Below, in pieces: positions 19,044-50,456 of a stretch of 64,000 nucleotides of DNA. The DNA comes from OCS116 cluster bacterium AG-430-B22 (GTDB taxonomy: Bacteria; Pseudomonadota; Alphaproteobacteria; MED-G09). Location: the NCBI GenBank assembly GCA_003209955.1, contig QCOD01000001.1:33330-97329 (forward strand), given 5' to 3'. The first letter of the stretch is position 1. Each line of letters begins with the position of its first letter. The position numbers were made by a program, and so were the translations under genes. Under the pieces are notes generated by a model. The model searched no databases. It was given only the letters and a program-made list of their open reading frames with translations, and was not told the origin of the DNA.

Positions 19044-19092
19044 GAGATATGCCTTAGTAATAGAAATATATTAATTTACAATGATTAAATCC

Positions 19093-25603: not shown

Positions 25604-26725
25604 TTAGATATTAACAATTATCCCTTCATTTGGATTTATATTACCTTGAATAACTTCATCATAAGTATCTAAAAAATTATTTAATCCTGAAACTTCTTTA
25701 ATGTTCATCCAATTTTTGCTTTGTTCGGCTCTAGCATCCATAAAAGATGTTGTTTTTTTATTGTAACCATCTGTTCCCCAGTCACTTATTCTTTTTTGGA
25801 TATGATCTGGAGCAAAAAAGAACTCAGTTCTATCTCTATTCATGAGTTGACCCATTGCATCATCAGCTGTTGTTTCATTATCCCAATGTGTCATACCAAC
25901 TGTAATACACTTAAGCATGTGATTTCCAAGTGAGCTATGAAGTTTTCCTAGTATTTCTCTATTACCAGCCATATCGACCATTACACTAGAATTATTAATA
26001 TTTATATCACCAAGGTCATCATAATAATAAATCTGATCATATGAATTTAAGCTTTTTACAAATTCAGAATTTCTTTTTGAAGTTAACCCAATAATTTCAG
26101 GTTTTCTCTCCTCACTTTGTAAACCTTGAGCAAGACCAATAGCTGTTTTACTAGATGCACTCACTATGATCACCTGTTCAGCCCCTAAATAATTTTCATT
26201 TTGAAGATAATCACATAAACAAAAAGATGTTACATGAAGTGGAAATAAAAGAGCTCTTATCTTGTCATTATTCTTATTATAATTGTTTTCATTGTTTAAT
26301 CTTATGTAATTATTGTAAACTGGAGGTAATTCTTTTCGATGTTCTTCGCCATCTATAAAAGTTTTTTGTGAAATTTTTATCGGTTTCAAAGTCAAAATAT
26401 TAGATGCTGGAAAATAACCAAAAAGTCTTTCTCCGACTTGTAATTCTTTATTATTTGAGTACTTTATTTCAGCAAAACCCCACATTGGTATGCATCCCCA
26501 AATGTTCTCAGGATCACTCATGGTTGGGAAAAATTGCCAGTAACCCATCATTTCGCCTGCAACACCGTATGTAACATTGTTAGATGTGAAAGCAAAATTT
26601 TCAATTTGAACTATTATTTCTCCATTTTTTAAATCATCCAAATTAATATCATTTGTAACAATTCTTCTTTGCGTTAAATTTTTTTTTGATGTTTGTAACT
26701 CTTCTTTGATAAGACTCATAACCAA
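25604..26725 (-). CDS. conserved hypothetical protein (possibly DUF2855-like)
   Basis: 373 aa, soluble, no motif I can name confidently. Confidence 0.3.
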   Translation of the reverse strand: MVMSLIKEELQTSKKNLTQRRIVTNDINLDDLKNGEIIVQIENFAFTSNNVTYGVAGEMMGYWQFFPTMSDPENIWGCIPMWGFAEIKYSNNKELQVGERLFGYFPASNILTLKPIKISQKTFIDGEEHRKELPPVYNNYIRLNNENNYNKNNDKIRALLFPLHVTSFCLCDYLQNENYLGAEQVIIVSASSKTAIGLAQGLQSEERKPEIIGLTSKRNSEFVKSLNSYDQIYYYDDLGDININNSSVMVDMAGNREILGKLHSSLGNHMLKCITVGMTHWDNETTADDAMGQLMNRDRTEFFFAPDHIQKRISDWGTDGYNKKTTSFMDARAEQSKNWMNIKEVSGLNNFLDTYDEVIQGNINPNEGIIVNI

Positions 26726-26770: not shown

Positions 26771-27814
26771 TTGGAAAATAAAAACAAAATAACGATAATT
26801 GGAGTACCAGCATCACCCTACACTAGAAAAATGCTAGCTGCTTTAAGGTATAGAAATATTCAGCATTCCGTAATTTGGGGTAATGCCAAAGAAATATTAA
26901 ATTCGATGGGCTTGGAGACTCCCAAACCCACACTTTTACCAGTAGTTTTATTGAATAATGGCAGTGAAGTTAAAGCTATTTGTGATACAACACCTATAAT
27001 AAGAAAACTTGAGGTTAGTAAGTCTGAAAGAGGTATTATTCCGAAAAATAAATCTCTTGCTTTATTAAATTCAATTCTTGAAGATTTTGGCGATGAATGG
27101 GTAACTAAATACATGTTCCATTATCGATGGCATTTTCAAAGGGATATTGATAATGCTGGCAATATATTGCCTCTTCTTCACTCAGTGAGCTTAGAAGAAA
27201 AAACTCATAAAGATTTTAAAAAATATATTACTGATTTGCAGATAAGTAGATTATGGGTTGTTGGTTCCAACGAAAAAACTGCAGATATTATTGAAAGAAG
27301 TTATAAAAGATTTCTAGTATTATTAGAAAATCATTTTGAAACTACCCCCTTTTTATTTGGTGATAAGCCTTTATCATCAGATTTTGCTTTTTATGGACAA
27401 ATGACCCAACTCATTGGCTTTGATCCAACGTCAAGAGAAATAGCTCTTGAGTTATCACCTAGAGCTGTTGCTTGGGTTGATATTATGGAAGATTTATCAG
27501 GTTTTGATGAAGACTCAAGTCATCTTTTATCAATTGAAAATCTTCCAGAAACAACCTTTTCCATTTTTGAGGAATTGAGTCATGGATATGTACCTGCAAT
27601 GATTGCAAATTCAATAGCTTTTAAAAAAGGTCAAGAAACTTGGTCAACAAAAATTGATAATCAAATATGGGAACAAAAAACATTTCCTTATCAAGCTAAG
27701 TGCCTAGAATGGATTAGAGAAGAATTTAATGAGCTTGAGCAAGATGACAAGACAAAGGTTTTTAATTTTTTAACAAAAATGGGCTGTGAAAAATTACTGA
27801 TCAATAAGGAGTAA
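26771..27814 (+). CDS. glutathione S-transferase-like protein (thioredoxin-fold N-terminus, long C-terminal domain)
   Basis: ITIIGVPASPYTRKMLAALRY...LLPVV resembles a GST N-terminal domain; 347 aa; first gene of a tight + strand operon. Confidence 0.45.
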   Translation: MENKNKITIIGVPASPYTRKMLAALRYRNIQHSVIWGNAKEILNSMGLETPKPTLLPVVLLNNGSEVKAICDTTPIIRKLEVSKSERGIIPKNKSLALLNSILEDFGDEWVTKYMFHYRWHFQRDIDNAGNILPLLHSVSLEEKTHKDFKKYITDLQISRLWVVGSNEKTADIIERSYKRFLVLLENHFETTPFLFGDKPLSSDFAFYGQMTQLIGFDPTSREIALELSPRAVAWVDIMEDLSGFDEDSSHLLSIENLPETTFSIFEELSHGYVPAMIANSIAFKKGQETWSTKIDNQIWEQKTFPYQAKCLEWIREEFNELEQDDKTKVFNFLTKMGCEKLLINKE

Positions 27815-27816
27815 AT

Positions 27817-28884
27817 ATGAAAATATTGAGAACACCTGATAAAAGTTTTGATGTAATAACCGATTTTCCTTATGAACCATGTTATACCAATATTAAGACT
27901 AAAGATGGTAGTGAATTAAGAATACATCACATAGATGAAGGGCCTAAAGATGGACCTATTCTATTGGCAATGCATGGCCAACCAGTTTGGTGTTATCTCT
28001 ACTCAAGAATGATACCCTTCTTAACAAAAGCTGGAATAAGAGTAATCGCCCCTGATTTACCGGGTTATGGAAAGTCTGATAAGCCGGCTTCAAGATCTGA
28101 TTACAGTTATCAAAATCAAGTTGATTGGATGGTGGACTGGTTAAATGCTAATGATTTTAAAGATATAACTTTCTTTGGACAGGATTGGGGTGGGCTAATT
28201 GGGTTAAGAGTAGTTGCGAGGGAGTCACATAGATTTTCAAAGGTTTCAATGGGTAATACCGGACTTCCCTATAATCCAGATGCACCAGAAGAGGTTGTTA
28301 AGGAAATAAAAACCTTTAGAGAGAGTGATATAAAGCTATACCCATTATCTATGGCTAAACAAGTGAGAGAAATGGATAATGGTAAATTACATCCTGGATT
28401 AAAATTTATGTACTGGCAGAAATTTTGTTGGGATACGGAAGATCTTCCCATTGGTTTTATACAATCTATGCAAATGGAAAAGAGGTCACTAATTTCAACA
28501 ATTATAAATTATATATTTATATTATTAGGAAAATATAGTGCTTCTCCTTTCAAGTCATATATAGCAAAAGCATACGAGGCACCATTTCCAGACCCAAGCT
28601 ACAAAATGGGCCCTAGAGCAATGCCAAGTCAAGTACCTATAATTCCTGATCAATCTCTTGAAGAGCAAAGGAAAGCAAGAGAATTTTTTAGTAAATGGGA
28701 TAAACCTTTTCTGAGTGTTTTTGCAGGTGATGATCCTGTAACAAATGGAATTGAACAAGATGTATTAAATATGTGTCCAAATGCAAAAAGCGCACCTCAT
28801 ATTGGTGGTGGCCATTTTTTTCAATGGAAAAGGTCTAAAAAACTTTCAGAGATTCTAATAGACTTTATCAAGGAAAATAAATGA
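27817..28884 (+). CDS. haloalkane dehalogenase, HLD-I subfamily (DhlA-like alpha/beta hydrolase)
   Basis: Recalled alignment to Xanthobacter DhlA: LRTPDKSF...HGQPVWCYLYSRMIP...RVIAPDLPGYGKSDKP; nucleophile and halide-binding context FGQDWGG (Asp-Trp); AYEAPFPDPSYK; catalytic acid region GDDPV and His in GGGHFFQ. Confidence 0.8.
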   Translation: MKILRTPDKSFDVITDFPYEPCYTNIKTKDGSELRIHHIDEGPKDGPILLAMHGQPVWCYLYSRMIPFLTKAGIRVIAPDLPGYGKSDKPASRSDYSYQNQVDWMVDWLNANDFKDITFFGQDWGGLIGLRVVARESHRFSKVSMGNTGLPYNPDAPEEVVKEIKTFRESDIKLYPLSMAKQVREMDNGKLHPGLKFMYWQKFCWDTEDLPIGFIQSMQMEKRSLISTIINYIFILLGKYSASPFKSYIAKAYEAPFPDPSYKMGPRAMPSQVPIIPDQSLEEQRKAREFFSKWDKPFLSVFAGDDPVTNGIEQDVLNMCPNAKSAPHIGGGHFFQWKRSKKLSEILIDFIKENK

Positions 28885-29465
28885 AGAGTTTTGTAATTAT
28901 TATTAGTGTGTTTATAATTTTAGGAAGTGTTGGTTGGCATTTCCGAGCAAATATTATTTTTGAAATATATCCCCTTATAATTGAAGCACGGGGGTATGGA
29001 GAAAAGTCGGAGTTATCTTTAAAAGAAATTAATGGAGTTGAGATTATGGAAGTAAAAAATGCATTAGTACCAAATGATGAACAAATGAAAGGTTTTATGG
29101 AAGGTGATATTGATACGCCTATATATATGGTTAATTTACTTAAATTTAGAGATAAAGCAGAATATGAAGATGGTAGGGAAACTAATTTAACAGGTGAAGA
29201 GGCTTACTTAATTTATGGAAAAGAAGTGCAAAAGCATCTTAAAAAATTTGGAGCTGAACCAATTTTTTCAGGAAGAGTTGCACGGCTGATGTTAGGCGAA
29301 GTAGGAGAACTTTGGGATGTAATCGCAATTGCTAAATATCCCAATCGAAAAGCTATGATGGAAATGATTATGGATGCGGATTATAGAGAAAGTGAAAAAC
29401 ATCGTGCTGCAGGTTTAAAAGGCCAACTTAATATTGAAACTAAAACAGGAGAGTTTGATTGGTAG
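28881..29465 (+). CDS. hypothetical protein with N-terminal TM anchor (possibly DUF1330-like C-terminal domain)
   Basis: ATGA overlap with the dehalogenase gene; N-terminal hydrophobic segment then soluble domain; family uncertain. Confidence 0.35.
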   Translation: MKSFVIIISVFIILGSVGWHFRANIIFEIYPLIIEARGYGEKSELSLKEINGVEIMEVKNALVPNDEQMKGFMEGDIDTPIYMVNLLKFRDKAEYEDGRETNLTGEEAYLIYGKEVQKHLKKFGAEPIFSGRVARLMLGEVGELWDVIAIAKYPNRKAMMEMIMDADYRESEKHRAAGLKGQLNIETKTGEFDW

Positions 29466-29935
29466 ATTTTCTTGATAAGATATTTCCTGAAAATGCGAAC
29501 AATAACTATTCAGGAAATCGAATAGCCTTATGGGTACTGATAGGATTTCTTGCTCTTATGACTTGGCGCTCAGCAATACACATGTTTTTTGAACCCTTTG
29601 GATTGCATAATATTGCAAATATTGTTGTTTTGATGGGTAACCCCGATCCAATGCCATTAATTTATCGCTTTTTTTCTATTTGGGGATTTGCACAATTAAT
29701 TTTTTGTATTGCTTGTTGGATTGCAATCATTAAATACAGGTCATTTATACCATTAATGTATTTATTTTGGATTTTTGAGTGGGGAGTAAGAGTTATTTAT
29801 TATCCATTTTTTGGAAGAGGTGGTGATGTAATTAATAATTATAATACAGCAGGTACGCCTGGGTTTTATATGGCTCCATACATTTTGATCTTATTAATAA
29901 TATTTTTTATTTTATCTTTAAGGAGACAAAATTGA
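29459..29935 (+). CDS. hypothetical polytopic membrane protein
   Basis: 4 hydrophobic segments, Trp-rich; TTG start in the ORF track; overlaps neighbours by 4-7 nt. Confidence 0.4.
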   Translation: MVDFLDKIFPENANNNYSGNRIALWVLIGFLALMTWRSAIHMFFEPFGLHNIANIVVLMGNPDPMPLIYRFFSIWGFAQLIFCIACWIAIIKYRSFIPLMYLFWIFEWGVRVIYYPFFGRGGDVINNYNTAGTPGFYMAPYILILLIIFFILSLRRQN

Positions 29936-30993
29936 AAATAATCAAATATTTGATTTTTATAATCGCAATTTTAGTTATTGGTGTTTTAATTTTAATAAGA
30001 ATCCCTTCAATTCAGGACAGAATAGCAACTAGAGTCATTAAAAATACTCTTACTAATCCATTGTCTTTACCTGATGATGCGCTAACCGCTCTAGTATGTG
30101 GCTCTCGCTCTCCAATACCTTCACCTAATAGAGCTGAAACTTGTATTTTAATTAAGGCTGGAGAAAATCTTTATATAGTTGATGTTGGTGACGGTAGTAT
30201 AAGTAATTTAAGAAATTGGAGAGTCGATATTAATAAAGTGAAGGCCGTTTTACTTACACATCTGCACTCTGATCATATATCTGATCTTGCCGATTTACAT
30301 TTAAATTCTTGGATTATGAATCCTACAAGATCAAAGAAATTAGATGTCTTTGGTCCACAAGGAGTTGACCAAGTTGTTAATGGTTTTGATGCTGCATACA
30401 AATTAGATTATCAGTTTAGAAACGAACACCATGGCGATGATGTTGCACCACTTGATTCTGCTGGCTATGAACCAAATATTATCGATTTAGCAAGTCCAAT
30501 TATTATTGATGATAATGGCTTAAAAGTTACAGCCTTCTCTGTGATTCATGACCCTGTTGAACCAGCTTTAGGATACCGTTTTGATTATAAAGGAAGATCA
30601 ATAGTGATAAGTGGTGATACAATTTATCATGATAATGTTATCAAAAACTCAAAAGATGCTGATGTTTTATTTCACGAGGCTCAAGCAAATCATATGATTA
30701 AAATTATGGAAAATGAAAATGTAAAGTTAGGCAATCTTTTGTTGGCTAAAGTTATGTCGGATATTGTTACCTATCATACGACACCAGTTGAGGCGGCAGA
30801 AATTGCAAATAAAGCTAATGTTCGACATTTGGTTTTTTATCACCTTACCCCTGCACCAAGAAATAATATTATGGAAAATATGTTTGTTAGAGGTGTAAAT
30901 GAGGTAAGAGAGGAATGGACATTATCTGATGATGGAACAATGGTGATTTTACCTCTTAATTCTGATAAGATAGAAATCAAAAAAATAAATTAA
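29932..30993 (+). CDS. metallo-beta-lactamase-fold hydrolase (RNase Z/ElaC-like or MBL hydrolase) with N-terminal TM anchor
   Basis: LLTHLHSDHISDL (HxHxDH) and downstream His/Asp ligands (HEAQANH; YHLTP). Confidence 0.75.
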   Translation: MKIIKYLIFIIAILVIGVLILIRIPSIQDRIATRVIKNTLTNPLSLPDDALTALVCGSRSPIPSPNRAETCILIKAGENLYIVDVGDGSISNLRNWRVDINKVKAVLLTHLHSDHISDLADLHLNSWIMNPTRSKKLDVFGPQGVDQVVNGFDAAYKLDYQFRNEHHGDDVAPLDSAGYEPNIIDLASPIIIDDNGLKVTAFSVIHDPVEPALGYRFDYKGRSIVISGDTIYHDNVIKNSKDADVLFHEAQANHMIKIMENENVKLGNLLLAKVMSDIVTYHTTPVEAAEIANKANVRHLVFYHLTPAPRNNIMENMFVRGVNEVREEWTLSDDGTMVILPLNSDKIEIKKIN

Positions 30994-30995
30994 AT

Positions 30996-31328
30996 ATGCT
31001 TTTTTTAATAACTAAAATCATTGTGACTGCTGCTATTATTGTCCTGATAAGCGAAATTGCTAAAGTTAACGATAAGTTAGGTGGCTTAATAGCTGCAATG
31101 CCTATTATGACACTGCTTGTTATTTTGTGGATGTATTATGATGGAAATTCTAATGAAAAAATTTCTTCACATATATCATATACATTGTTTTATATTGTGC
31201 CAACCATACCAATGTTCTTAATTTTTCCTTTTGTCATTTCAAAATTTGGTTTTTATATAGCTTTTTTAATAAGTATTTTAATAACAGTAATTTCTGTAAC
31301 AATTCTAAATTTTTTTATAAAAATCTAA
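30996..31328 (+). CDS. small 3-4 TM membrane protein (DUF3147-like)
   Basis: 110 aa, almost entirely hydrophobic; last gene of the operon. Confidence 0.4.
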   Translation: MLFLITKIIVTAAIIVLISEIAKVNDKLGGLIAAMPIMTLLVILWMYYDGNSNEKISSHISYTLFYIVPTIPMFLIFPFVISKFGFYIAFLISILITVISVTILNFFIKI

Positions 31329-32482
31329 TTTATATTGTCGCGCATTGTTCTAAAACAATTTCTTATTTCATTTATAAAAAGTTCGGGTTGTTCAAAGGCT
31401 GCAAAATGACCTCCTTTATCTAACTCGTTCCAATAGACAATGTTTGCATAAACTTGCTCTGCCCAAGCTCTTGGTGTACGAGAGATTTCTTTTGGAAAGA
31501 TACTACAACCAATTGGTAATGAGAGTTTTTTGTCAGAATTACCTCCAAATGATCCAAAGCTTTCCCAATAAAGACGTGCTGAAGATGCACCGCTTTTTGT
31601 TAACCAATAAAACATGATATTATCAATTAATTCTTCCTTTGTGAGGATATTTTCGGGATGACCATCACAGTCAGTCCATTCATAAAATTTTTCAATTATC
31701 CAAGCCGCTTGACCTATTGGTGAATCGACTAGGCTATAACCTAAGGTTTGTGGTCTTGTGCTTTGTTGTTTTGAATAACCAGAACCCCATTCTTGATAAT
31801 AATTTAAGCCTTCAAATGCAATTTTATCCCTCTCACTTGGATTTTCTATAGCCTCCTTAGTTGGTGGAGCAAAAGGCATGTTAACATGTAGCCCTAAACA
31901 ATTACCTTTGTTCTGCTTTCCAATAGCAATTGTTATGGCTGAGCCCCAATCACCACCTTGTGCGAAGTAATTTTTATAGCCAATTTTATTCATTAATTGA
32001 TCCCAAATTTCAGCAATTTTATCAACTCCTGTTCCATTCTTTGATGGTTTACTAGAAAATCCATATCCAGGAAGAGTAGGGCAAACAACATGGAATGCAT
32101 CTTCTTTCTCTCCCCCATAATTAAGGGGATCAACGAGAGGTCTTATTATTTTATGAAATTCTACAATTGAACCAGGCCAACCATGACTCATAATTAAAGG
32201 TGTTGCATTTTCAATTTCACTTTTAACATGAACGAAATGAATATCAAGTTCATCTATAGTCGTAATATACTGATCAAAAGAATTATAATACTCTTCTCTT
32301 TTTCTCCAGTTATAGTTATTAATCCAATATTCACTAACTTCTTTCATATAAGATAAAGGGGTGCCTTGGTTCCAGTCGTTTACAGTTTCTTTTTCTGGCC
32401 ATCGGGTAGATTCGATTCTGCTTTTTAATTTATTTATATCTTCATCAGCAATTTCGATTTTGAAGGGTTTTATTTCTGACAT
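31325..32482 (-). CDS. epoxide hydrolase (microsomal EH-like, alpha/beta hydrolase with EH N-terminal domain)
   Basis: N-terminal domain signature PFKIEIADEDINKLKSRIESTRWPE; HGWPGS oxyanion motif; GGDWGS nucleophile elbow; C-terminal catalytic His (GGHFAAFEQPE). Confidence 0.85.
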   Translation of the reverse strand: MSEIKPFKIEIADEDINKLKSRIESTRWPEKETVNDWNQGTPLSYMKEVSEYWINNYNWRKREEYYNSFDQYITTIDELDIHFVHVKSEIENATPLIMSHGWPGSIVEFHKIIRPLVDPLNYGGEKEDAFHVVCPTLPGYGFSSKPSKNGTGVDKIAEIWDQLMNKIGYKNYFAQGGDWGSAITIAIGKQNKGNCLGLHVNMPFAPPTKEAIENPSERDKIAFEGLNYYQEWGSGYSKQQSTRPQTLGYSLVDSPIGQAAWIIEKFYEWTDCDGHPENILTKEELIDNIMFYWLTKSGASSARLYWESFGSFGGNSDKKLSLPIGCSIFPKEISRTPRAWAEQVYANIVYWNELDKGGHFAAFEQPELFINEIRNCFRTMRDNIN

Positions 32483-32562
32483 TGTTTTATTATTCTCACT
32501 TATTATTTAAATTATGCCAAAATTTATGCTTAAATAAAAATATATTTTTTAAGGGGAAAACT

Positions 32563-32973
32563 ATGAGTGATCATGTAGCGGATAGAATTGCTTTACAAGA
32601 TGTTATGCTTAGATATGCAGCAGGTGTTGATGAGCGTGATTTTGATCTTTATTCTTCATGTTTTATCGAAGATGTGGAGATCCTAGATTTTGGTGAAGAA
32701 CCTATAAATGGAAGAGATAATTGGGTTGAATATGTGAAAGGTGCACTCTCAAATTATGGCCCAACTCAGCATATGCTTGGCCCTCAGCTTGCCTCAATTA
32801 ATGGTGATGACGCTCACTGCAGAACAGATGTTCAGGCTTTACATTATCTTAAAGAACCCGAGGGTGAAATACTTACTCTTTGGGCAACATATGAAACAGA
32901 TATGAAGAGAGTTGATGGAGAATGGAAAATATATCGTCATAGATTAGTTTCAAGAGGAATTCGTCAGCAATAA
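32563..32973 (+). CDS. NTF2-like/SnoaL-like small protein
   Basis: About 136 aa; RIALQDVMLRYAAGVDERDFD N-terminal helix pattern typical of the SnoaL_4/NTF2 superfamily; ATG at 32563 preceded by AAGGGG RBS. The ORF-track start at 32482 would overlap the epoxide hydrolase gene. Confidence 0.55.
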   Translation: MSDHVADRIALQDVMLRYAAGVDERDFDLYSSCFIEDVEILDFGEEPINGRDNWVEYVKGALSNYGPTQHMLGPQLASINGDDAHCRTDVQALHYLKEPEGEILTLWATYETDMKRVDGEWKIYRHRLVSRGIRQQ

Positions 32974-33425
32974 TGTCTTTAAAAACAAAAATACCACCTC
33001 CAGTAGTTACAATATTATTTGCTATTATGATTTTCTATTTTTCGGACAATTTTACATATATCGATTTACCTTTTAAAATATATATTTCACTATTTTTCAT
33101 AGTATTAGGTTTTATTGTAACTTTTTCTTCAGCAAGAAATTTTAAAAAGAAGGATACAACTGTTAATCCTATGAAACCCAATGAGACCTCTAAATTAGTA
33201 ACTGATGGTTTTTTTAAGATTACACGTAACCCTATGTATTTAGGTATGTTGTTGTTTTTGTTGGGTTTATCTATTTATAACGGTTTAATTGTAGGTTTAA
33301 TATTCTTACCTTTATTTGTTGGATATATTACTTATTTTCAAATTATTCCTGAAGAGAATGCCATGCTTGAGATCTTTGGCGAAGAATACAAAGTATATAT
33401 GAAAAAAGTTAGGCGATGGATTTGA
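32973..33425 (+). CDS. isoprenylcysteine carboxyl methyltransferase (ICMT)/phospholipid methyltransferase family membrane protein
   Basis: ITRNPMYLGMLL...EE..L...FG..Y..Y signature near the C-terminus; 4 TM segments. Confidence 0.75.
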   Translation: MSLKTKIPPPVVTILFAIMIFYFSDNFTYIDLPFKIYISLFFIVLGFIVTFSSARNFKKKDTTVNPMKPNETSKLVTDGFFKITRNPMYLGMLLFLLGLSIYNGLIVGLIFLPLFVGYITYFQIIPEENAMLEIFGEEYKVYMKKVRRWI

Positions 33426-33428
33426 TAA

Positions 33429-34316
33429 ATGGCTGATATAAAACACTTGAAAGCAGATGCGTCTCAAGAGGATATCCTGAGTGTCATTGATCAAGATGCA
33501 GCGTTAATCTTAGATGATGTTCTAGACAATGATTTATCAAGCCAGATTAAAGATGAGCTAGATCCTTATTTAAATAGCTATATTAAAGGAAAGACCGAGT
33601 TTACTGGTTTTGAGACTAAAAGAGTAGGAGGCTTGTTAGCAAGATCAGTAGGTTGTCAAAATCTAGCTCTTCATCCCCTTATAAATAATCTAGCTTGTAA
33701 TTTCCTTGAACCTTATGGCGATGGGTATCAACTTCACTTCACTTCGGCAGTTAGTATTGGTCCTGGAGAGTCAAAACAGATACTTCATCGCGATAGGGGT
33801 ATCTGGGGTGGATATATTCCAAGAAAAATAGAAACTCATTTCAGTACAATTTGGGCTTTAACTGATTTCACTAAAGAAAATGGCGCTACTCAAGTTGTTC
33901 CAGGTTCGCATAAATGGGATAAAGATAGAGTCCCTAATGAGGATGAAATTGCTTATGCTGAAATGTCTTCTGGCTCAGTATTGCTTTATACTGGGACTGT
34001 TCTTCACGGAGGTGGAAAAAACTCCACTGATAATGAGATTAGAACTGGAGTTTTTATGCATTATACCTTGAACTGGTTAAGGCAAGAGGAAAATCAGTAT
34101 CTATCTCACCCTCCTGAAGTTGCTAAGAATTTTTCACCTGAATTAAGAGCCCTTATTGGATATTCAAAAGGTGGATATGTACTTGGTTTTTACACTGACC
34201 CTGATGATAAAAAAGGAACAATGGATTCAGTAAGTCCTGAAAGAATTTTTGGAGAAGAAGAGGATGATTTCTCATCATTGCCTCCTCAAAGCGATTTAGT
34301 AAAAGATACTTCATAG
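33429..34316 (+). CDS. phytanoyl-CoA dioxygenase (PhyH) family Fe(II)/2-oxoglutarate-dependent oxygenase
   Basis: H-x-D facial triad (ILHRDRG), distal His (VLHGGGKN) and Arg; length and spacing fit PhyH. Confidence 0.65.
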   Translation: MADIKHLKADASQEDILSVIDQDAALILDDVLDNDLSSQIKDELDPYLNSYIKGKTEFTGFETKRVGGLLARSVGCQNLALHPLINNLACNFLEPYGDGYQLHFTSAVSIGPGESKQILHRDRGIWGGYIPRKIETHFSTIWALTDFTKENGATQVVPGSHKWDKDRVPNEDEIAYAEMSSGSVLLYTGTVLHGGGKNSTDNEIRTGVFMHYTLNWLRQEENQYLSHPPEVAKNFSPELRALIGYSKGGYVLGFYTDPDDKKGTMDSVSPERIFGEEEDDFSSLPPQSDLVKDTS

Positions 34317-34324
34317 TAATTTCA

Positions 34325-35092
34325 ATGATAAAAAAATTAGATAATAAAGTTGCTATAATTACCGGCGGAGCTGGCGGAATAGGGAAGGCAATAGCAATAG
34401 AATTTTTAAATCAAGGATCTGATGTATTGCTTTTTGATTTAAATGAAAGCGACTTAAAAAACTTGTGCCAAGAAATTGGCTCTAATCACCTTAGCTATTG
34501 CGCAGGTGACGTAACTTCTATTGAGGATAATTTAAGAGCTGTAGAAATAGCAAAAGAGAAATTTGGAGGTCTTGATATTTTTGTTGCAAATGCTGGCATT
34601 GAAGGTGATGTTAAAAATTTAGAAGATTATGATATTGATAAATTTGATCAAGTTATGGCTGTAAATGTGAAAGGGCCTTTTTTAGGTTTGAAGGCATCCA
34701 TTCCAGCACTAACTGATAGAGGAGGTGGAAGTTTTATTATAACTTCTAGTATCGCAGGTTTATCTGGTGCGCCACAAATAGGCGCCTATGCAACAAGTAA
34801 GCATGCCGTAATTGGTTTGATGAAATCTGCCGCAAAAGAGAATGCTGAAAAAAATATAAGAGTAAACACAGTTAACCCATCTCCTGTTGAGACAAGAATG
34901 ATGCGCAGTCTAGAGGAAGGATTGATGCCGGGTGAGTCTGAGCAAGCTAAAGATCTTATGGAATCAAATATTCCATTAGGTAGATATGGTAAACCCGAAG
35001 ATGTAGCCAAAGTAATGCTTTTCCTTGCAAGCGATGATAGTTCTTTTGTTACAGGCTCTGTTTATAATGTTGATGGAGGAAGTACTGCTTAA
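34325..35092 (+). CDS. short-chain dehydrogenase/reductase (SDR)
   Basis: VAIITGGAGGIGKAIA; NAG; YATSKHA. Confidence 0.85.
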   Translation: MIKKLDNKVAIITGGAGGIGKAIAIEFLNQGSDVLLFDLNESDLKNLCQEIGSNHLSYCAGDVTSIEDNLRAVEIAKEKFGGLDIFVANAGIEGDVKNLEDYDIDKFDQVMAVNVKGPFLGLKASIPALTDRGGGSFIITSSIAGLSGAPQIGAYATSKHAVIGLMKSAAKENAEKNIRVNTVNPSPVETRMMRSLEEGLMPGESEQAKDLMESNIPLGRYGKPEDVAKVMLFLASDDSSFVTGSVYNVDGGSTA

Positions 35093-36507
35093 GGCTTAAA
35101 AGGGCCTTTTGCAATATATTTATCCATTGTCTGGTGGTAATGCCTAAGCCTACTTTCCTGATAATTTGCATATGTTATTTTACCAGATTTACTAGCTCGA
35201 ATACCTCTTTCAACCTCAGGTATGTTACTCATATCTTGATCAAAAATAAAACCTATACCAGTTAATTCTTCAGCATCATCCCAGTTTTCATCTTCATTTA
35301 GATAATGTATTGGGATTGGTTCATACTTTTCTTGCTTATCAGGATCTTTATGATTTCTTTGCAAAAACATAGCTTCCATTATTGCAGAGTCTTCTCTATT
35401 TCCATTTGGTCGAAATCTATAGATAAGGTTTCTTGGAAAGCCACCCCAGGGTGAAAAATTTGGAAATACATTATAAACTATTGCATCAAGCATTTCTGCA
35501 TCTGATTTATCAGAGTAATCATGTCCATCGGCTTCTTCAAAGGCATCTCTCATAGCTTGTGCTGCAACCTTTCTAGCCTCCTCTCCTTCTGGGACGAGTA
35601 TCTTATCATCTGCAGCCATTCGACCAGATCCATAAAAAATGGTATCTAATATTTCTTGTTCATCTACATTTTTAAGATTTGGGCTTGGTTTTCCCGTTAA
35701 GGCAATATTTCTATTCATATGATCGCCATAAATATCATATCGTGCATTTTCATCTGCTTGGAAAGGTAAAATTTCTGGGTGAATTAATGTCGCATGAAAA
35801 GATTCCATAAATGCTTCTTGAACTGTTTTCCAGTTACCCGGAACCACTTTTGAAACATGAATAACTTTTTTACAATCACCTAAATTCCATCTTTTATGGT
35901 GTTCTGGAAGAGGAGCAAGGTATTCTTCTAATGAGACAGCCTTATCATCCATATTAATAAATACAAAGCCTTCCCAAATCTCAACTCTAACTTCAGGAAG
36001 CTTAAAATCTCTATCTTTTATGTGCTGAAAATCCCATGAAGCAGGAGTAAATTTTAATGATCCATCTAAATTCCAACAAAAACCATGGAAAGGACATTGT
36101 AGATCTTTACCAAATCCGCGTTCAGTTTTTATTCTTCTACCTCTATGCAAACAGCTATTATAAAAAGCTTGAATTTTATCTTCTTCAGATCTCACAATCA
36201 AAAAAGACCAATCAAGTATATCATATACAAGGCTGTCACCAACTTCCGGAATATCCTCTACTCTGCATGCAAATTGCCAGACTCTAGTCCACATACAGTC
36301 TCTTTCTTTTTCAAAAAATTCTTTAGAAATGTATCTGGAAGTATCAATATCTTCAGAGCCAAGATATTCATAAGTTTCTTCGACCATAAATTCAGGTACT
36401 GTTTTGGCATCTTCCATTAGGTACTCTGTATAGCTTGTATCTGGCGATCTTTCGTCACCAGTTTTAACAACTGAAAGTTTTTGATTTTCTTTTTTTATTT
36501 CACTCAT
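35089..36507 (-). CDS. Rieske [2Fe-2S] non-heme-iron oxygenase, alpha (catalytic) subunit
   Basis: Rieske motif CLHRG-x16-CPFHGFCW; mononuclear Fe ligands EAFMESFHATLIHP plus downstream Asp; 472 aa. Confidence 0.85.
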   Translation of the reverse strand: MSEIKKENQKLSVVKTGDERSPDTSYTEYLMEDAKTVPEFMVEETYEYLGSEDIDTSRYISKEFFEKERDCMWTRVWQFACRVEDIPEVGDSLVYDILDWSFLIVRSEEDKIQAFYNSCLHRGRRIKTERGFGKDLQCPFHGFCWNLDGSLKFTPASWDFQHIKDRDFKLPEVRVEIWEGFVFINMDDKAVSLEEYLAPLPEHHKRWNLGDCKKVIHVSKVVPGNWKTVQEAFMESFHATLIHPEILPFQADENARYDIYGDHMNRNIALTGKPSPNLKNVDEQEILDTIFYGSGRMAADDKILVPEGEEARKVAAQAMRDAFEEADGHDYSDKSDAEMLDAIVYNVFPNFSPWGGFPRNLIYRFRPNGNREDSAIMEAMFLQRNHKDPDKQEKYEPIPIHYLNEDENWDDAEELTGIGFIFDQDMSNIPEVERGIRASKSGKITYANYQESRLRHYHQTMDKYIAKGPFKP

Positions 36508-36681: not shown

Positions 36682-37080
36682 ATGAATAATATGGAAGAAA
36701 AATTAGCTATAAGAGAGCTATTAGATAGATACTGTGATGGCGTTAATCAAAGAGATGCTGACATTTGGGGCAGCACATGGTCAGAAAACGCTATCTGGGA
36801 AATTCCACATTTAGATATCAAAAATGAAAGCAAGAAAACAATCGTTAATGTTTGGAATGATGCCATGAAAGGATATCCATTTGTACATATGATAGCTCAA
36901 CCTGGTTTTATTAATATTGATGGTGATAAAGCTTATATGAGAAGTTATACTATTGAAACGGCAGTTTTACCAGATGGAACTGAATTACGACCTTGTGGTC
37001 AATATGATGACGAATGCATTAAAGAAAATGGTGAATGGAAATTTTCTAAGAGATCATTTAGCAATCTTTATGGAGAATAA
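36682..37080 (+). CDS. NTF2-like small protein translationally coupled to the Rieske alpha subunit (candidate divergent beta-like subunit)
   Basis: 132 aa from ATG 36682 (AGGGGG RBS); NTF2/SnoaL-like pattern (LLDRYCDGVNQRDADIWGSTWSENAIWEIP); stop overlaps the downstream Rieske ATG (TAATGA). Confidence 0.5.
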   Translation: MNNMEEKLAIRELLDRYCDGVNQRDADIWGSTWSENAIWEIPHLDIKNESKKTIVNVWNDAMKGYPFVHMIAQPGFINIDGDKAYMRSYTIETAVLPDGTELRPCGQYDDECIKENGEWKFSKRSFSNLYGE

Positions 37081-38450
37081 TGATAATGAATAAAATTATA
37101 CCCACGCCAAGGGATAAGCATCCCGATCCTAAACTAAGAGGAGATAGGATTTCAGGTGAAAGATATTACTCGAAAGAATTTATGCAAAAAGAATGGGATC
37201 ATATGTGGACAAAAGTGTGGCAGATTGCGGGGATTGCATCTGAGATATCAGAACCAGATGATTTTTTTGTTTATAAAATTGGCTTAGAAGAAGTTTTAGT
37301 AGTTCGCCAAAAAGATAGATCTGTAAAGGCTTTTTACAATGTTTGTCCTCATAGAGGAAATATATTGGTTCATGTTGAAAACGGATCATTAGATACTTTT
37401 AAATGCACTTACCATGGGTGGGAGTACGATACTGAGGGAGTTTTAAGGAATCTTCAAGATCCTGAGGATTTTGATGATGGTAATCCTTGTGGGAAAATTA
37501 AGTTAAAACAAATTCGTTGTGAGGTCGCCTTAGGTTTTGTTTGGATTACTCTCTCTGATGAGCCTCAAAACTTTGAAGATGCCCTTAATCCCTTAATTAG
37601 TCATATGAATCCTTATCAGCCTGAGAAATATATAAGAGTTTTAAATCTTACTTGTGAAGTTGACTGTAATTGGAAGATAATTCATGATAATTTTAATGAG
37701 TCCTATCATTTACCAACATTACACCCTGAGCTTTCTGTTCATATCGAAAATGATTATAAATTTTCGCAATTTGATATGTATGATAATGGTCACAATAGAA
37801 TGCTTATGCCCGGTCATAAACCAGCATTAGGGGATCAGTCACCAAATGAGGTCAATTTCCCTCTTGATGCTGCACTAGAGGCCTGGGATTTGAATCCTGA
37901 GGATTTTAAAGGTAAAGCTCAAGAAACAAGACTAGCTATACAAAAGCAAAAGAGAAAATTAGCCAAAGGTAGAGGTTTTTGGCATTATGAATTTTTAACC
38001 GATGAACAATTGACTGATTATTATTTTTATAATTGCTTTCCTAATTATGATATCACAATGACTCCTGATGGAATTCAGTTTCAAAGACCACAGCCACATC
38101 CAACTGATCCAGAAAAATGCCTTTTTGAGCATTGGTGGCTTGTTCCAGATATGGAGCAATTATCAGCCTCAGCAACTTTCATGGGATCTGATACAACTGA
38201 AAATACTGCTGGAGAGAATATGACCGAGACACCTCTTGGACCAAGGCCATTGAGACCTGCAGAGCATGAATGGGTAATATATCCAGAAGGTTCTATGGGT
38301 TATGTTACTGATCAAGATATCAGTATGGCCATAGGTCAGCAAAAAGGCGTCAAGTCAAAAGGCTTTGATGATGCAATTTTAACTAATCAAGAAAGAAGGG
38401 TTAGAAGGTATCACGAGGTGCTAAATGATTATATTGAAGGAAGAAGATAA
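37080..38450 (+). CDS. Rieske [2Fe-2S] non-heme-iron oxygenase, alpha subunit
   Basis: CPHRG-x17-CTYHGWEY; DNFNESYHLPTLHP catalytic motif; 456 aa. Confidence 0.85.
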   Translation: MIMNKIIPTPRDKHPDPKLRGDRISGERYYSKEFMQKEWDHMWTKVWQIAGIASEISEPDDFFVYKIGLEEVLVVRQKDRSVKAFYNVCPHRGNILVHVENGSLDTFKCTYHGWEYDTEGVLRNLQDPEDFDDGNPCGKIKLKQIRCEVALGFVWITLSDEPQNFEDALNPLISHMNPYQPEKYIRVLNLTCEVDCNWKIIHDNFNESYHLPTLHPELSVHIENDYKFSQFDMYDNGHNRMLMPGHKPALGDQSPNEVNFPLDAALEAWDLNPEDFKGKAQETRLAIQKQKRKLAKGRGFWHYEFLTDEQLTDYYFYNCFPNYDITMTPDGIQFQRPQPHPTDPEKCLFEHWWLVPDMEQLSASATFMGSDTTENTAGENMTETPLGPRPLRPAEHEWVIYPEGSMGYVTDQDISMAIGQQKGVKSKGFDDAILTNQERRVRRYHEVLNDYIEGRR

Positions 38451-42257: not shown

Positions 42258-42290
42258 AAAGCGTCCTTGTTTAAGGGCGCTTTTTATTTT
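42258..42290. terminator. bidirectional rho-independent terminator between convergent genes
   Basis: aaagcgtcc-ttgtttaa-gggcgc stem-loop flanked by A-run upstream and tttttatttt downstream; overlaps the stop of the minus-strand Rieske gene. Confidence 0.65.
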
Positions 42291-49844: not shown

Positions 49845-50456
49845 ATGCTCAAAGTTCATTTTGCTCCAAATTCTAGAGCCGGTAGAATTATATGGTTGTT
49901 AGAAGAATTATCTCTTCCTTATGAAGTTAATAATATGGCGTTTCATCCAAGTGACTTAAAGTCAGATGAACATAGAAAAAGGCATCCTCTAGGAAGAATA
50001 CCAGTTCTTGATGATGGTGATATTAGAATTTATGAGTCTGGTGCGATAGTAGAATATGTTCTGGAAAGGCATAAAAATGGAGGATTAAAGCCTTCTTCAG
50101 ATGACACGAATTATCCTAATTTTTTACAATGGTTTCATTATTGCGAAGGCATGGTAATGCCTCCAATTAATACTATTGTTGTTCAGACAATTCTTCTTCC
50201 TCCTGAAAGGAGAGATGAAACTGCATTAGGACAAGCACAAAGATTGCTGACAAAATCATTAGTTCCTGTTGATGAAGCGCTTGAAGGAAAAGAATATTTG
50301 ATTGGTAATTTTTCTGCTGCGGATATTATGCTTGGTCATGCATGTTTTATGAGTAATAGAATGGGTTGTATCCCAGATGAAATGAGTAATCTTAAAAAAT
50401 ATGTTGAAAATATCACAAATAGACCAGCTTTTAAAATAGCTATTGAAATGCAATAA
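49845..50456 (+). CDS. glutathione S-transferase
   Basis: LKVHFAPNSRAGRIIWLLEELSLPYE; IPVLDDGDIRIYESGAIVEYV G-site motif. Confidence 0.8.
   Translation: MLKVHFAPNSRAGRIIWLLEELSLPYEVNNMAFHPSDLKSDEHRKRHPLGRIPVLDDGDIRIYESGAIVEYVLERHKNGGLKPSSDDTNYPNFLQWFHYCEGMVMPPINTIVVQTILLPPERRDETALGQAQRLLTKSLVPVDEALEGKEYLIGNFSAADIMLGHACFMSNRMGCIPDEMSNLKKYVENITNRPAFKIAIEMQ

Follow-up and report, generated by a model that had tools for sequence, protein, structure and literature searches.

What does the haloalkane dehalogenase (HLD) gene at this locus do, and in what company does it do it? The window, the whole 64,000-nucleotide stretch analyzed, had been given a sequence-only reading in which six overlapping + strand genes (g1 to g6), built around a DhlA-like HLD and followed by a convergent epoxide hydrolase, form a dedicated 1,2-dihaloalkane or organohalide detoxification module. 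The six + strand open reading frames and the convergent one are all present (Table 1). The explanation favored here, with a probability of roughly 0.6, is that g2 encodes an HLD-I enzyme with an enlarged cap, belonging to a SAR86-rich clade and set in a conserved, rearranging module for the detoxification or catabolism of hydrophobic electrophiles.

Table 1. Features of the locus, with positions in the window and the evidence for each assignment
Feature	Coordinates	Strand	Length	Evidence
DUF2855 protein, divergent	25604..26725	-	373 aa	Pfam DUF2855, 331.5 bits
g1, GST-like protein	26771..27814	+	347 aa	Pfam GST_N_3
g2, haloalkane dehalogenase, HLD-I-type, enlarged cap	27817..28884	+	355 aa	NCBIfam, PDB, model
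g2 cap-domain region (~residues 155-245), two insertions versus solved HLDs	28279..28551	+		alignments, model
g3, DUF1330-like protein, conserved core	29046..29465	+	~139 aa	PDB profile match, homolog starts
g4, orphan membrane protein, four long helices	29459..29935	+	158 aa	helix pattern, AF2
g5, membrane-anchored MBL-fold hydrolase, ElaC/AtsA branch	29932..30993	+	353 aa	Pfam Lactamase_B_2, 75.5 bits
g6, four hydrophobic segments, PRK09272 family-related	30996..31328	+	110 aa	NCBIfam NF006751, 130 bits (cut-off 154)
Epoxide hydrolase, convergent, EHN N-terminal domain	31325..32482	-	385 aa	Pfam EHN, 133.9 bits, and Abhydrolase_1
Canonical GST	49845..50456	+	203 aa	tblastn, 61% identity to cluster-C5 GSTs

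The dehalogenase and its cap

The g2 protein scores 316.6 bits against the NCBIfam model NF002043 "haloalkane dehalogenase" (curated cut-off 265) and its best solved relatives are all HLD-I, in agreement with the enzyme type read earlier. The motifs HGQP (53), QDWGG (122), FMYW (197), GDDP (304) and GGGHF (330) are found, among them the nucleophile, HGxP, cap and catalytic His contexts that had been recognized. By family, Asp123 is the predicted nucleophile, Trp124 and Trp200 the predicted halide-binding residues and His333 the predicted base, with Asp306 (Asp305 adjoining) as the probable catalytic acid and HGQP, containing Gln55, as the putative oxyanion motif. The pentad Asp123/Trp124/Trp200/Asp306/His333 is kept in 80/80 g2 orthologs, with no loss of the triad or of a halide-binding Trp, and these five residues are likewise invariant across 62 database homologs. 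An intact pentad alone is no proof that the physiological substrate is an organohalide, and to our knowledge the natural substrate is not known for many HLD homologs of non-degraders. The AF2 model (pLDDT 81, pTM 0.83) has an alpha/beta core with a helical cap and is matched by Foldseek to HLD-I structures with TM values of 0.83-0.87 (target-normalised), and a hydrophobicity scan of the protein shows neither a signal peptide nor a TM or hydrophobic segment. We assign g2 to subfamily HLD-I, as a cytoplasmic haloalkane dehalogenase with a predicted hydrolytic activity. The gene is under purifying selection, as judged from the 45 synonymous and 14 non-synonymous codon differences from the near-identical locus L001.

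Within HLD-I, sequence comparison places g2 nearer to DpcA (Psychrobacter cryohalolentis K5, 6f9o, E=8e-80), DccA (Caulobacter crescentus, 5esr) and DmrA (Mycobacterium rhodesiae JS60, 4mj3), with 34-39% identity, E values of 1e-72 to 1e-80 and target-normalised Foldseek TM values of 0.83-0.87, than to DhlA (Xanthobacter autotrophicus GJ10, 1edb/2had), a member of the same subfamily matched at 8.5e-38 with a Foldseek identity of ~25%; g2 is not specifically "DhlA-like". The alpha/beta-hydrolase core, the Asp-His-Asp triad, the Trp-Trp halide site and a catalytic acid carried by an "xDP" loop that follows strand 7 are common to g2 and DpcA/DccA/DmrA. The differences are HGQP in g2 for HGEP, a cap ~55 residues longer with two to three helices more, and the setting of g2, which is known here from sequence, in an uncultured marine clade with conserved partner genes. 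The pentad of DhlA (D124/W125/W175/D260/H289) corresponds to D123/W124/W200/D305-306/H333 in g2. The motif-for-motif match claimed with DhlA extends to the two halves of the core, aligned by BLASTP with 37% identity over residues 1-154 and 27% over 250-352, but not to the cap, for which BLASTP gives no alignment; the context of the second Trp is recovered only with multiple or HMM alignment. The view that HLD-I enzymes are known mostly from soil isolates is dated, the solved structures including DppA (Plesiocystis pacifica) and DpaA (Paraglaciecola agarilytica), whose hosts are marine.

Two cap insertions account for the length of g2, the solved HLD chains among the PDB sequence matches all having 290-325 amino acids. 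Alignment to DpcA, DccA, DmrA and DhlA together with the model shows the first insertion (~26-40 amino acids, residues ~155-196) to contribute two extra helices, and the second (~23-30 amino acids, residues ~217-247, window sequence LISTIINYIFILLG) an amphipathic helix, with an amphipathic per-column hydrophobicity pattern across 62 homologs. In total ~55 residues and two to three helices, one of them amphipathic, are added, the AF2 model having eight helices between strands 140-145 and 298-300, and PDB sequence comparison finds this extra in no solved HLD. The insertion is conserved clade-wide; among the full-length matches listed from a 50%-identity representative library, only P0530, P0534, P0554, P0569 and P0609 align through the cap in one stretch. 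The extra residues would necessarily change the shape of the access tunnel and the range of substrates open to the clade's HLD. The cap insertions are absent from the sequence-only reading.

The g2 clade is narrow yet extremely abundant, uncharacterised, marine and mostly SAR86. Relatives at E<=1e-20 number 7,265 proteins, a single 90%-identity cluster counts 4,959 sequences, and at least 598 loci of the clade, mostly from SAR86, are present in the genome collection.

Proteins encoded around the dehalogenase

The upstream gene g1 is GST-like as described, with GST_N_3 above its cut-off (26.9 bits compared with 22) and GST_C_6 and GST_C_2 sub-threshold. A thioredoxin-like N-domain is followed by a GST_C-like region and ~100 extra C-terminal residues, and S15-P16-Y17, the cis-Pro-like P57 and D72/T74 are invariant in 17 homologs. 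The likeness to cytosolic GSTs of the Ser type (tau, theta, zeta) comprises the thioredoxin-like domain, SP(Y/F), the cis-Pro position and the GST_C-like helical region, and an acidic/Ser-Thr pair lies at the site where GSTs bind the gamma-glutamyl group, glutathione binding by g1 being putative. Unlike those enzymes (~210-230 amino acids) the g1 proteins have ~345 amino acids, the ~100-residue C-terminal extra and a C-domain under the Pfam cut-offs. The family profile gives weak GST matches in the PDB (E ~1e-3), and the homologs, at least 5,006 of ~345 amino acids, are annotated as GST N-terminal domain proteins. The AAGGAG for g2 is located inside the 3' end of g1. The canonical 203-residue GST, with weak NCBIfam GST matches, lies 21 kb from the window HLD; in 38/79 related loci the HLD is directly followed by a gene of its type, often present as two copies in tandem.

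The third protein had been described as TM-anchored, an anchor that is missing in 17/17 homologs. The longest g3 ORF, from 28881, is extended by 55 residues that include a TM-like helix. This extension has no counterpart in the homologs outside the window's own lineage (17 aligned), all of which begin at the equivalent of Met56 (ATG 29046). A GGAG is placed 9 nt upstream of this ATG; together with the homolog starts it makes both the anchor and the g2/g3 overlap doubtful. Codon-position differences from L001 are 3/6/5 in the extension compared with 12/4/45 in the HLD gene, and the anchor is probably an artefact of ORF extension. Nearly the whole conserved core of g3 matches the DUF1330 protein RPA0582 (Rhodopseudomonas palustris, PDB 3dca/3hhl) with a profile E=2e-30, and against Pfam DUF1330 g3 scores 22.7 bits (cut-off 23). 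Since RPA0582 is itself without a known function, the match identifies a fold family, not a chemistry.

Both g4, read as a 4-TM protein, and g6, read as a small membrane protein, are multi-helix membrane proteins. No match to g4 occurs in Pfam, NCBIfam or PDB sequences, family profile included, and a fold search of the PDB with the AF2 model (pLDDT 80) likewise gives no match (best E=1.2). Its homologs form 714 clusters, 148-187 amino acids throughout and all unannotated, with conserved residues that include R37, S38, H41, D63, P64, W75, G76, R111, P134 and G135. The MBL-fold hydrolase was correctly recognized in g5, whose N-terminus carries a hydrophobic helix (residues 3-21) and whose HxHxDH motif lies at residue 110. 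It misses every NCBIfam equivalog cut-off, RNase Z (139/363) and GntH (147/333) being far under, and its best PDB matches are 8gyg "Arysulfatase" (5e-19) and PNGM-1 (8e-19). The MBL fold, HxHxDH and the ElaC/RNase Z-like branch are common to g5, PNGM-1 and the AtsA-type arylsulfatases of SulfAtlas family S4, a family described as lying near the RNase Z clade (PMC5066984); the similarity is just ~70 bits, and g5 differs in its N-terminal membrane helix. No PDB sequence relative is found for the DUF2855 protein. The convergent gene is an epoxide hydrolase as read, with the motifs HGWP and GGDWG.

Gene order in the window and in related genomes

The junctions had been described as overlaps of 1-4 nt. 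Overlaps of 4 nt occur at g4/g5 and, only with the longest g3 ORF, at g2/g3; the g3/g4 overlap is 7 nt, and g1/g2 and g5/g6 are separated by 2-nt spacers, leaving three of the five co-directional junctions overlapping. The convergent overlap of g6 with the epoxide hydrolase gene is 4 nt. Scans for promoters and terminators give no more than chance, which leaves the operon structure putative; g1-g5 probably form one or two transcription units in the window.

Neighbourhoods were counted in 79 loci from ~80 related genomes, so that co-occurrence is partly inherited synteny. No partner of the HLD is more constant than the g1 family, which is found in 58/79 loci, always on the HLD strand and within 5 kb in 57. 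The g3 family occurs in 56/79, all on the HLD strand, and the g4 family in 47/79, all co-directional with the HLD and within 5 kb. For g5 the count is 35/79 (26 co-directional, 27/35 within 5 kb), and for DUF2855 23/79, all within 5 kb and 22/23 co-directional, the window's copy being divergent. The GST-like, DUF1330-like, 4TM and DUF2855 genes thus rarely lie more than 5 kb from the HLD, in 58 distinct arrangement strings and at least five orders of the four core genes. This recurrence in shuffled order, with three families always co-directional, argues for functional linkage.

The HLD and its recurring partners constitute a conserved, undescribed, widespread and rearranging marine module, and the operon is not strain-specific. 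The proposed six-gene unit survives for g1-g5, which cluster with the HLD elsewhere and are joined by DUF2855, but g6 and the epoxide hydrolase are incidental, non-conserved neighbours: g6 is beside the HLD only in L001, and an epoxide hydrolase homolog adjoins it only there, lying ~5 kb off on the opposite strand in L015-L017. In other genomes the module is extended by nu-type and other GSTs, FabK/NMO-like and CurA-like ene-reductases, an S1 sulfatase, an acyl-CoA dehydrogenase (ACAD) and a divergent TetR. Genes for TetR, sulfatase, NMO and DsbA-like proteins, present at other loci, are absent from the window. An HLD without partners is found in ~15-20% of loci, so the enzyme can work without them. 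Calling the module a pathway is guilt by association, since DUF1330, DUF2855 and 4TM are uncharacterised families and the GST-like and MBL proteins weakly assignable.

Proposed role and alternatives

Family chemistry and the conserved residues suggest that Asp123 would make an SN2 attack on a halogen-bearing sp3 carbon, with the leaving halide held by the indole NH of Trp124 and of the cap residue Trp200, and possibly also by the side chain of Gln55. Water activated by His333, predicted to pair with Asp306, would then hydrolyse the alkyl-enzyme ester. The module core would consist of the proteins of g1 to g5 (GST-like, HLD, DUF1330-like, orphan 4-helix membrane protein and ElaC/AtsA-like MBL hydrolase) together with the DUF2855 protein. 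Its most likely task is to detoxify or catabolise, inducibly, hydrophobic electrophiles that arise naturally in the sea, the HLD dealing with halogenated aliphatic compounds among them. SAR86 fits this role, with its many GSTs and with hydrophobic or aromatic compounds as its predicted speciality (PMC11582366). The GSTs, ene-reductases, sulfatase and TetR in relatives point to broad handling of hydrophobic electrophiles, not to a DhlA-type 1,2-dihaloalkane pathway. Such an operon, dedicated to 1,2-dihaloalkanes or small organohalides and composed of exactly the six genes and the epoxide hydrolase, is improbable. It would suit the pentad common to g2 and DhlA, the tight co-directional packing and the adjoining epoxide hydrolase, but DhlA is distant (~25% identity overall, cap unalignable) with a cap unlike the enlarged one of g2, and neither g6 nor the epoxide hydrolase is conserved with the HLD. 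When 1,2-dichloroethane is catabolised, DhlA works alongside an alcohol dehydrogenase, an aldehyde dehydrogenase and the haloacid dehalogenase DhlB; no match to these families occurs among the gene products scanned (17.6-36.5 kb), which leaves the 1,2-dihaloalkane module unsupported, and related loci carry GSTs, ene-reductases and a sulfatase instead.

Luciferases arose from the HLD fold, and the physiological substrate of the g2 clade could be other than an organohalide, the cluster processing non-halogenated lipids or aromatics through displacement of some other anionic group, hydrolysis of an ester or epoxide, or cofactor-free oxygenation like that of Renilla luciferase. The conserved large remodelling of the cap and the Glu-to-Gln change in HGxP, both clade-specific, fit this idea, the ene-reductases, ACAD, sulfatase and GSTs have no intrinsic halogen link, and the predicted preference of SAR86 for hydrophobic or aromatic compounds (PMC11582366) suits it too. 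We regard it as unlikely, because it is difficult to see why both halide-stabilising Trp residues and the Asp-His-Asp triad should be invariant in 80/80 unless an anionic group leaves and a covalent alkyl-enzyme intermediate forms, and the g2 score exceeds the curated HLD cut-off. It is also very doubtful that the locus is no pathway at all, only a SAR86-type hotspot of independent detoxification genes held by shared regulation or inherited synteny. The highly variable content, the extra HLD paralogs and many GSTs in the same region, the solitary HLD of some lineages and an HLD identity pattern incongruent with that of its neighbours would all be expected of a hotspot. A functional module better accommodates the four families, three without other known context, that keep within 5 kb and to the HLD strand through at least five orders, the orphan 4TM family doing so in 47/47 surveyed loci that carry it.

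Subfamily, fold and active site of the dehalogenase

The product of g2, the central gene of the cluster, is a haloalkane dehalogenase (HLD), as the sequence-only reading had proposed, and belongs to subfamily HLD-I by every sequence and model feature examined here. It scores 316.6 bits against NCBIfam NF002043 (PRK00870, haloalkane dehalogenase; cut-off 265) over profile positions 1-301 of 302 and falls far under the cut-offs of the HLD-II type models NF002938 and NF002873. The best PDB sequence matches are 6f9o (271.7 bits, E = 7.8e-80), 5esr (258.1 bits) and 4mj3 (245.6 bits), which Foldseek names as DpcA, DccA and DmrA, respectively. The AlphaFold2 model (62-sequence alignment, pLDDT 81.2, pTM 0.83) has an α/β-hydrolase core with a helical cap, or lid domain, between strands 6 and 7, and eight helices lie between the strands at residues 140-145 and 298-300. 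The top 17 Foldseek matches to the model in the PDB are all HLD-I (target-normalised TM 0.78-0.87), the best being DmrA, DpcA, DccA, DppA, DpaA and DhlA, with HLD-II enzymes placed after these. HLDs as a kind are already known, and databases already label such proteins.

The pentad that defines HLD catalysis (PMC3938430) is intact in g2 as Asp-123, Trp-124, Trp-200, Asp-306 and His-333. The motif QDWGG at residue 122 places Asp-123 at the position of the nucleophile and Trp-124 at that of the first halide-stabilising tryptophan, and neither varies among the 80 orthologs (one from each locus) or the 109 HLD-family ORFs of the related loci, which were aligned with DhlA using MAFFT. Gln-55 and the whole pentad show no substitution in 80/80 orthologs or in 62 database homologs; loss of the catalytic triad or a halide tryptophan, named beforehand as evidence against a dehalogenase, is not seen. 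Trp-200, in the segment Phe-197-Met-Tyr-Trp, aligns with Phe-172-Thr-Ala-Trp-175 of DhlA and with the FEAW segment of DccA. In HLD-II, to which DadB belongs, the second halide residue is instead an asparagine after HG, and the acid is a glutamate after strand 6, whereas HLD-I has an aspartate after strand 7; the catalytic histidine follows strand 8. Asp-305 lies opposite DhlA Asp-260 in the MAFFT and BLAST alignments and is aspartate in 61 and asparagine in 19 of the 80 orthologs. Asp-306-Pro-307 pairs with the DP of DpcA, DccA and DmrA in HMMER alignments, and owing to this pairing and its invariance Asp-306, rather than Asp-305, is taken as the probable catalytic acid. Relative to its 96% identical counterpart in locus L001, g2 has 45 synonymous and 14 non-synonymous codon differences, which shows that the gene is under strong purifying selection.

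The enzyme is longer (355 amino acids) than every solved HLD chain listed (290-325 amino acids), the extra length being contributed by two cap insertions at approximately residues 155-196 and 217-247, and none of the top 17 HLD-I fold matches has so large a cap. The second insertion is amphipathic throughout the family and merely more hydrophobic in the window's protein; a transmembrane role for it is rejected on this pattern and because no 19-residue stretch exceeds the threshold. The variable residue of the HGxP motif is glutamine (HGQP), compared with glutamate in DhlA. The conserved cap, larger by ~55 residues, and HGQP are new features that occur in no solved HLD listed, and we know of no characterised HLD that has them.

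The sequence-only reading had placed g2 close to DhlA, at the centre of an organohalide or 1,2-dihaloalkane detoxification module. The DhlA reference sequence (identical to PDB 1edb_A over residues 1-310) is distant, with ~25% identity overall; BLASTP aligns residues 1-154 (37% identity) and 250-352 (27% identity) and leaves the cap unaligned, and the PDB sequence match of DhlA reaches 133 bits only, through residues 3-154. The residues matched in the MAFFT alignment are DhlA Asp-124/Trp-125, Trp-175, Asp-260 and His-289, opposite g2 Asp-123/Trp-124, Trp-200, Asp-305 and His-333. Among the gene products scanned at 17.6-36.5 kb none matches the alcohol dehydrogenase, aldehyde dehydrogenase or haloacid dehalogenase families, and with a cap that cannot be aligned both orthology to DhlA and a 1,2-dichloroethane pathway are rejected. 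The accompanying remark that HLD-I is known mainly from soil isolates is dated: DppA (Plesiocystis pacifica) and DpaA (Paraglaciecola agarilytica), both of marine hosts, are among the solved members.

If g2 follows the usual HLD chemistry of SN2 attack and ester hydrolysis, Asp-123 would be the nucleophile, Trp-124 and Trp-200 would clamp the halide, and His-333 with Asp-306 would activate water for hydrolysis of the ester. The amide of Gln-55 may contribute to halide binding, similar to the asparagine of HLD-II, and the enlarged, partly amphipathic cap would alter the tunnel and the substrate range.

Gene layout and partner proteins

The six consecutive plus-strand ORFs that had been claimed are all present, with spacers of -7 to +2 nt save for a possible 161-nt gap ahead of g3, and the cluster matches the window as a whole in GC content (0.323 versus 0.326). 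Of the overlapping six-gene operon that had been proposed, the tight co-directional packing stands; the g1/g2 and g5/g6 junctions have spacers, and g6 is not conserved. A single g1-g6 transcription unit is therefore no more than putative. Rfam and tRNA scans find no Rfam family, rRNA or tRNA in the window, and scans of this AT-rich DNA return 33 promoters against 37 expected and 2 terminators against 3.6 expected, at or below chance.

Positions of the cluster, its neighbours and other features of the window
Feature	Coordinates	Strand	Length	Junction with next gene
TonB-dependent receptor	15196-17523	+		
Adjacent MFS_2 (GPH-family) pair	17604-20439	-		
DUF2855 gene (divergent)	25604-26725	-	373 aa	
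g1, GST-like	26771-27814	+	347 aa	2-nt spacer; AAGGAG for g2 within g1 3' end
g2, HLD	27817-28884	+	355 aa	4-nt overlap, long g3 ORF only
g3, DUF1330-like	28881-29465	+	194 aa as longest ORF	7-nt overlap
HLD stop to DUF1330 start	28885-29045		161 nt	
TTGTAA-16-TATAAT	28891-28918			
g4, four-transmembrane (4TM) orphan	29459-29935	+	158 aa	4-nt overlap
g5, MBL-fold hydrolase	29932-30993	+	353 aa	2-nt spacer
g6, small membrane protein	30996-31328	+	110 aa	
Epoxide hydrolase (convergent)	31325-32482		385 aa	
SnoaL_4-like to SDR run	32482-34316	+		
Rieske alpha subunit	35089-36507	-		
Rieske alpha subunit	37080-38450	+		
Rieske alpha subunit	42284-43720	-		
Rieske alpha subunit	43788-45104	-		
TonB-dependent receptor	45226-47682	+		
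Unannotated ORF	51741-52820		359 aa	
DNA cytosine-5 methyltransferase	52796-53890	+		

The g1 protein reaches 26.9 bits against GST_N_3 (cut-off 22), with GST_N_2, GST_C_6 and GST_C_2 under their cut-offs. Ser-15-Pro-16-Tyr-17, Pro-57 and Asp-72/Thr-74 are invariant in 17 homologs, and alignment to a solved GST places Ser-15, Pro-57 and Asp-72/Thr-74 at the positions of the catalytic serine, the cis-proline and the γ-glutamyl-binding pair. The family profile matches the PDB at E ~1e-3; at least 5,006 proteins of ~345 amino acids make up the family, and homologs bear PF13417 and PF17171.

The g3 product had been described as a TM-anchored unknown protein. All 17 aligned homologs are ~133-145 amino acids in length and start at the window's Met-56, the ATG of which (29046) has GGAG 9 nt upstream. 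Differences from L001 in the 165-nt extension are spread 3/6/5 by codon position with no third-position bias, a weak test (the g3 core gives 6/6/9). The anchor is probably an artefact of ORF extension, which would leave g2 and g3 161 nt apart. In the window's lineage alone this 161-nt segment stays open in frame, with a TM-like helix encoded in it, and it contains a promoter-like TTGTAA-16-TATAAT, not above chance. As a single sequence g3 scores 22.7 bits against Pfam DUF1330 (cut-off 23), and its family profile matches RPA0582 (PDB code 3dca) with E = 2.4e-30 over profile positions 6-126, a match to a solved member that places it in DUF1330. The literature search on DUF1330 returned nothing relevant.

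The g4 protein has no Pfam, NCBIfam or PDB match, its family profile included, and its 714 homolog clusters are all of 148-187 amino acids and all unannotated. The confident four-helix model (pLDDT 80) has a best Foldseek match to the PDB of E = 1.2, and PDB sequence and Foldseek searches give no known fold. MAPEG (membrane GST; MGST, LTC4S, FLAP) likewise finds no support, with no Pfam match for 12 members at E ≤ 10 and no PDB sequence or MAPEG fold match. The g5 protein has an MBL fold with HxHxDH at residue 110, an N-terminal hydrophobic helix and 75.5 bits against Pfam Lactamase_B_2. Identity as RNase Z or GntH is rejected, both scores lying under cut-off (139.3 versus 363 and 147.4 versus 333). 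The nearest solved structure is the MBL-fold arylsulfatase 8gyg (5e-19, 72 bits only), followed by PNGM-1; in SulfAtlas the AtsA-type S4 sulfatases adjoin the RNase Z clade (PMC5066984). The g6 protein resembles the PRK09272 hypothetical membrane family with a score under cut-off, and the convergent gene is, as claimed, an epoxide hydrolase, of EHN type with HGWP and GGDWG motifs. As a whole, the observation in the sequence-only reading is partly confirmed and its interpretation partly supported.

Conservation of the neighbourhood and distribution of the long-cap clade

The window proteins were searched by tblastn against 80 loci (±8 kb) encoding a g2 relative and all ORFs of the loci were clustered, with counts taken over the 79 loci having a central HLD.

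Gene families around the dehalogenase in 79 related loci
Family	Loci	On HLD strand	Within 5 kb
GST-like	58	58	57
DUF1330-like	56	56	56
FabK/NMO-like flavoenzyme	48	39	46
4TM	47	47	47
Canonical GSTs (often tandem pair directly 3' of HLD)	38	36	38
MBL	35	26	27
S1 sulfatase	31	31	28
TetR (mostly divergent)	28	2	28
DUF2855	23	22	23
Acyl-CoA dehydrogenase	18	6	17
DsbA-like	17	17	17
Ceramidase-like	12	1	12
CurA-like reductase	11	0	11

The HLD is recurrently linked with g1, g3, g4, g5 and DUF2855. There are 58 distinct arrangement strings among the 79 loci, and the four core genes (GSTL, GST-like; D1330, DUF1330-like) occur in at least five orders (D1330-GSTL-HLD-4TM, HLD-D1330-GSTL-4TM, GSTL-HLD-4TM-D1330, GSTL-HLD-D1330-4TM and D1330-4TM-HLD-GSTL). 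Genes that stay clustered and co-oriented while their order changes again and again are classically read as functionally coupled, which would link the HLD with its partners. The loci come from related genomes, and the counts are uncorrected for phylogeny. The conserved partner set, including an orphan membrane family, is new. Adjacent g6 and epoxide hydrolase genes are found only in the near-identical L001, an epoxide hydrolase homolog lies ~5 kb off on the other strand in L015-L017, and in about one-sixth of loci the HLD stands alone. The window carries a compact version (DUF2855 on the minus strand, GSTL, HLD, D1330, 4TM and MBL) and lacks TetR, sulfatase, NMO and DsbA-like genes throughout its 64 kb, and a C5-type GST is located 21 kb from the HLD. 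The literature searched yielded no paper linking SAR86 with haloalkane dehalogenase and no mention of DUF2855.

Database proteins matching g2 at E ≤ 1e-20 number 7,265, of which the best 120 are 66-96% identical and nearly all 350-370 amino acids long, several being already auto-annotated as haloalkane dehalogenase. Among the full-length matches listed from a 50%-identity representative library, P0530, P0534, P0554, P0569 and P0609 align unbroken through the cap, the others matching in the two core halves only. The 90%-identity cluster holding the window's HLD has 4,959 members, and at least 598 loci in a one-genome-per-species collection encode a g2 relative. Taken together, the few representatives aligning through the cap, the cluster size and the number of loci indicate a narrow yet very abundant clade. 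The best 80 of these loci are nearly all titled SAR86 or unclassified Gammaproteobacteria, and the status of the long-cap HLD as a dominant marine SAR86-type clade is new.

The closest assemblies are L001, titled PS1 clade (96%, SAG), L003, titled Rhodobiaceae (95%, MAG), and L040, titled OCS116 (SAG). These titles are all alphaproteobacterial, while ~70 further loci bearing the module have SAR86 or Gammaproteobacteria in their titles. The alphaproteobacterial titles would reflect mislabelling or contamination on the one hand, or movement of the entire cluster between classes on the other. Exchange of the HLD gene alone is suggested by incongruent identities: the window's HLD is 86-87% identical to those of SAR86 loci L006 and L009, with the GST-like protein at only 53-54% and 4TM and MBL at 53-60%, whereas in L040 the pattern is reversed, the neighbours being 68-82% identical to the window's and the HLD only 67-69%. 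An archaeal origin is rejected for a 72% identical homolog labelled Poseidoniia archaeon, in which the HLD is solitary; its contig bears a TonB-dependent receptor, so the label is read as a binning error.

Many loci (L006, L009, L019, L020 and others) bear extra HLD paralogs, often a few kb from the main HLD. These include an HLD-II-like type of ~285 amino acids with asparagine after HG and without the aspartate after strand 7, a 342-amino acid form without the cap tryptophan, and a 366-376-amino acid form with HGEP. A 509-amino acid metagenomic protein on a 1.8-kb contig (P0001) is 96% identical to the window's HLD over 90% of its length and bears an added amidase domain (PF01425), which could reflect a genuine fusion or an artefact of gene calling or assembly.

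A possible organohalogen pathway and the setting of the window

The HLDs have been studied mostly for bioremediation and biotechnology, with enzymes from a few dozen bacteria in culture, and little is known of what they do in nature. The clade described here is conserved, ranks with the most frequent HLD sequences of ocean metagenomes and is located in SAR86-type genomes; its lid architecture has no counterpart in any solved structure and its partners include an orphan membrane protein family. The module would handle hydrophobic electrophiles, with halogenated aliphatics as the HLD substrates. Speculatively, the sulfatase, AtsA-like MBL, acyl-CoA dehydrogenase and ene-reductases of the relatives would suit halogenated and/or sulfated lipids. 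The long-cap HLD, GST-like protein, orphan four-helix membrane protein and AtsA/ElaC-like MBL, joined in most SAR86 genomes by the S1 sulfatase, ene-reductases and acyl-CoA dehydrogenase, could form a hitherto unrecognised pathway by which some of the most abundant marine heterotrophs would dehalogenate, and possibly desulfate, natural algal organohalogens, making SAR86-type bacteria a major marine halocarbon sink, an unlikely reading to which we give a probability of about 0.15. Candidate substrates would be polyhalomethanes, long-chain haloalkanes and halogenated or chlorosulfo-lipids. Activity on natural halocarbons would name the organisms and genes by which bacteria consume climate-relevant marine halocarbons and would offer enzymology a cap and tunnel enlarged by nature. 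The first SAR86 isolate (PMC11582366) may allow work in culture if the strain carries the cluster.

Among the other genes of the window are those for two TonB-dependent receptors, two MFS_2 transporters and four Rieske oxygenase alpha subunits, along with SDRs, a PhyH-type dioxygenase and a fatty-acid hydroxylase. This gene content amounts to a setting for the catabolism of hydrophobic compounds, of the kind proposed for SAR86, with its many GSTs, in the first-isolate paper, which has no word beginning with "halo" (PMC11582366). The region is flanked by the receptors and the adjacent MFS_2 pair, an arrangement that fits the import of larger organic substrates. The four Rieske/ring-hydroxylating alpha-subunit genes are paralogs that share a 10-kb segment just downstream of the HLD cluster, and none of the ORFs scanned was recognised as a beta subunit or reductase. 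Directly past the epoxide hydrolase is a tight co-directional run of SnoaL_4-like, PEMT/ICMT-like membrane methyltransferase, PhyH-type dioxygenase and SDR genes, conserved with the window only in L001. Farther downstream, the DNA cytosine-5 methyltransferase gene (TIGR00675, 239.7 bits) overlaps the unannotated 359-amino acid ORF, with which it may form a restriction-modification pair.
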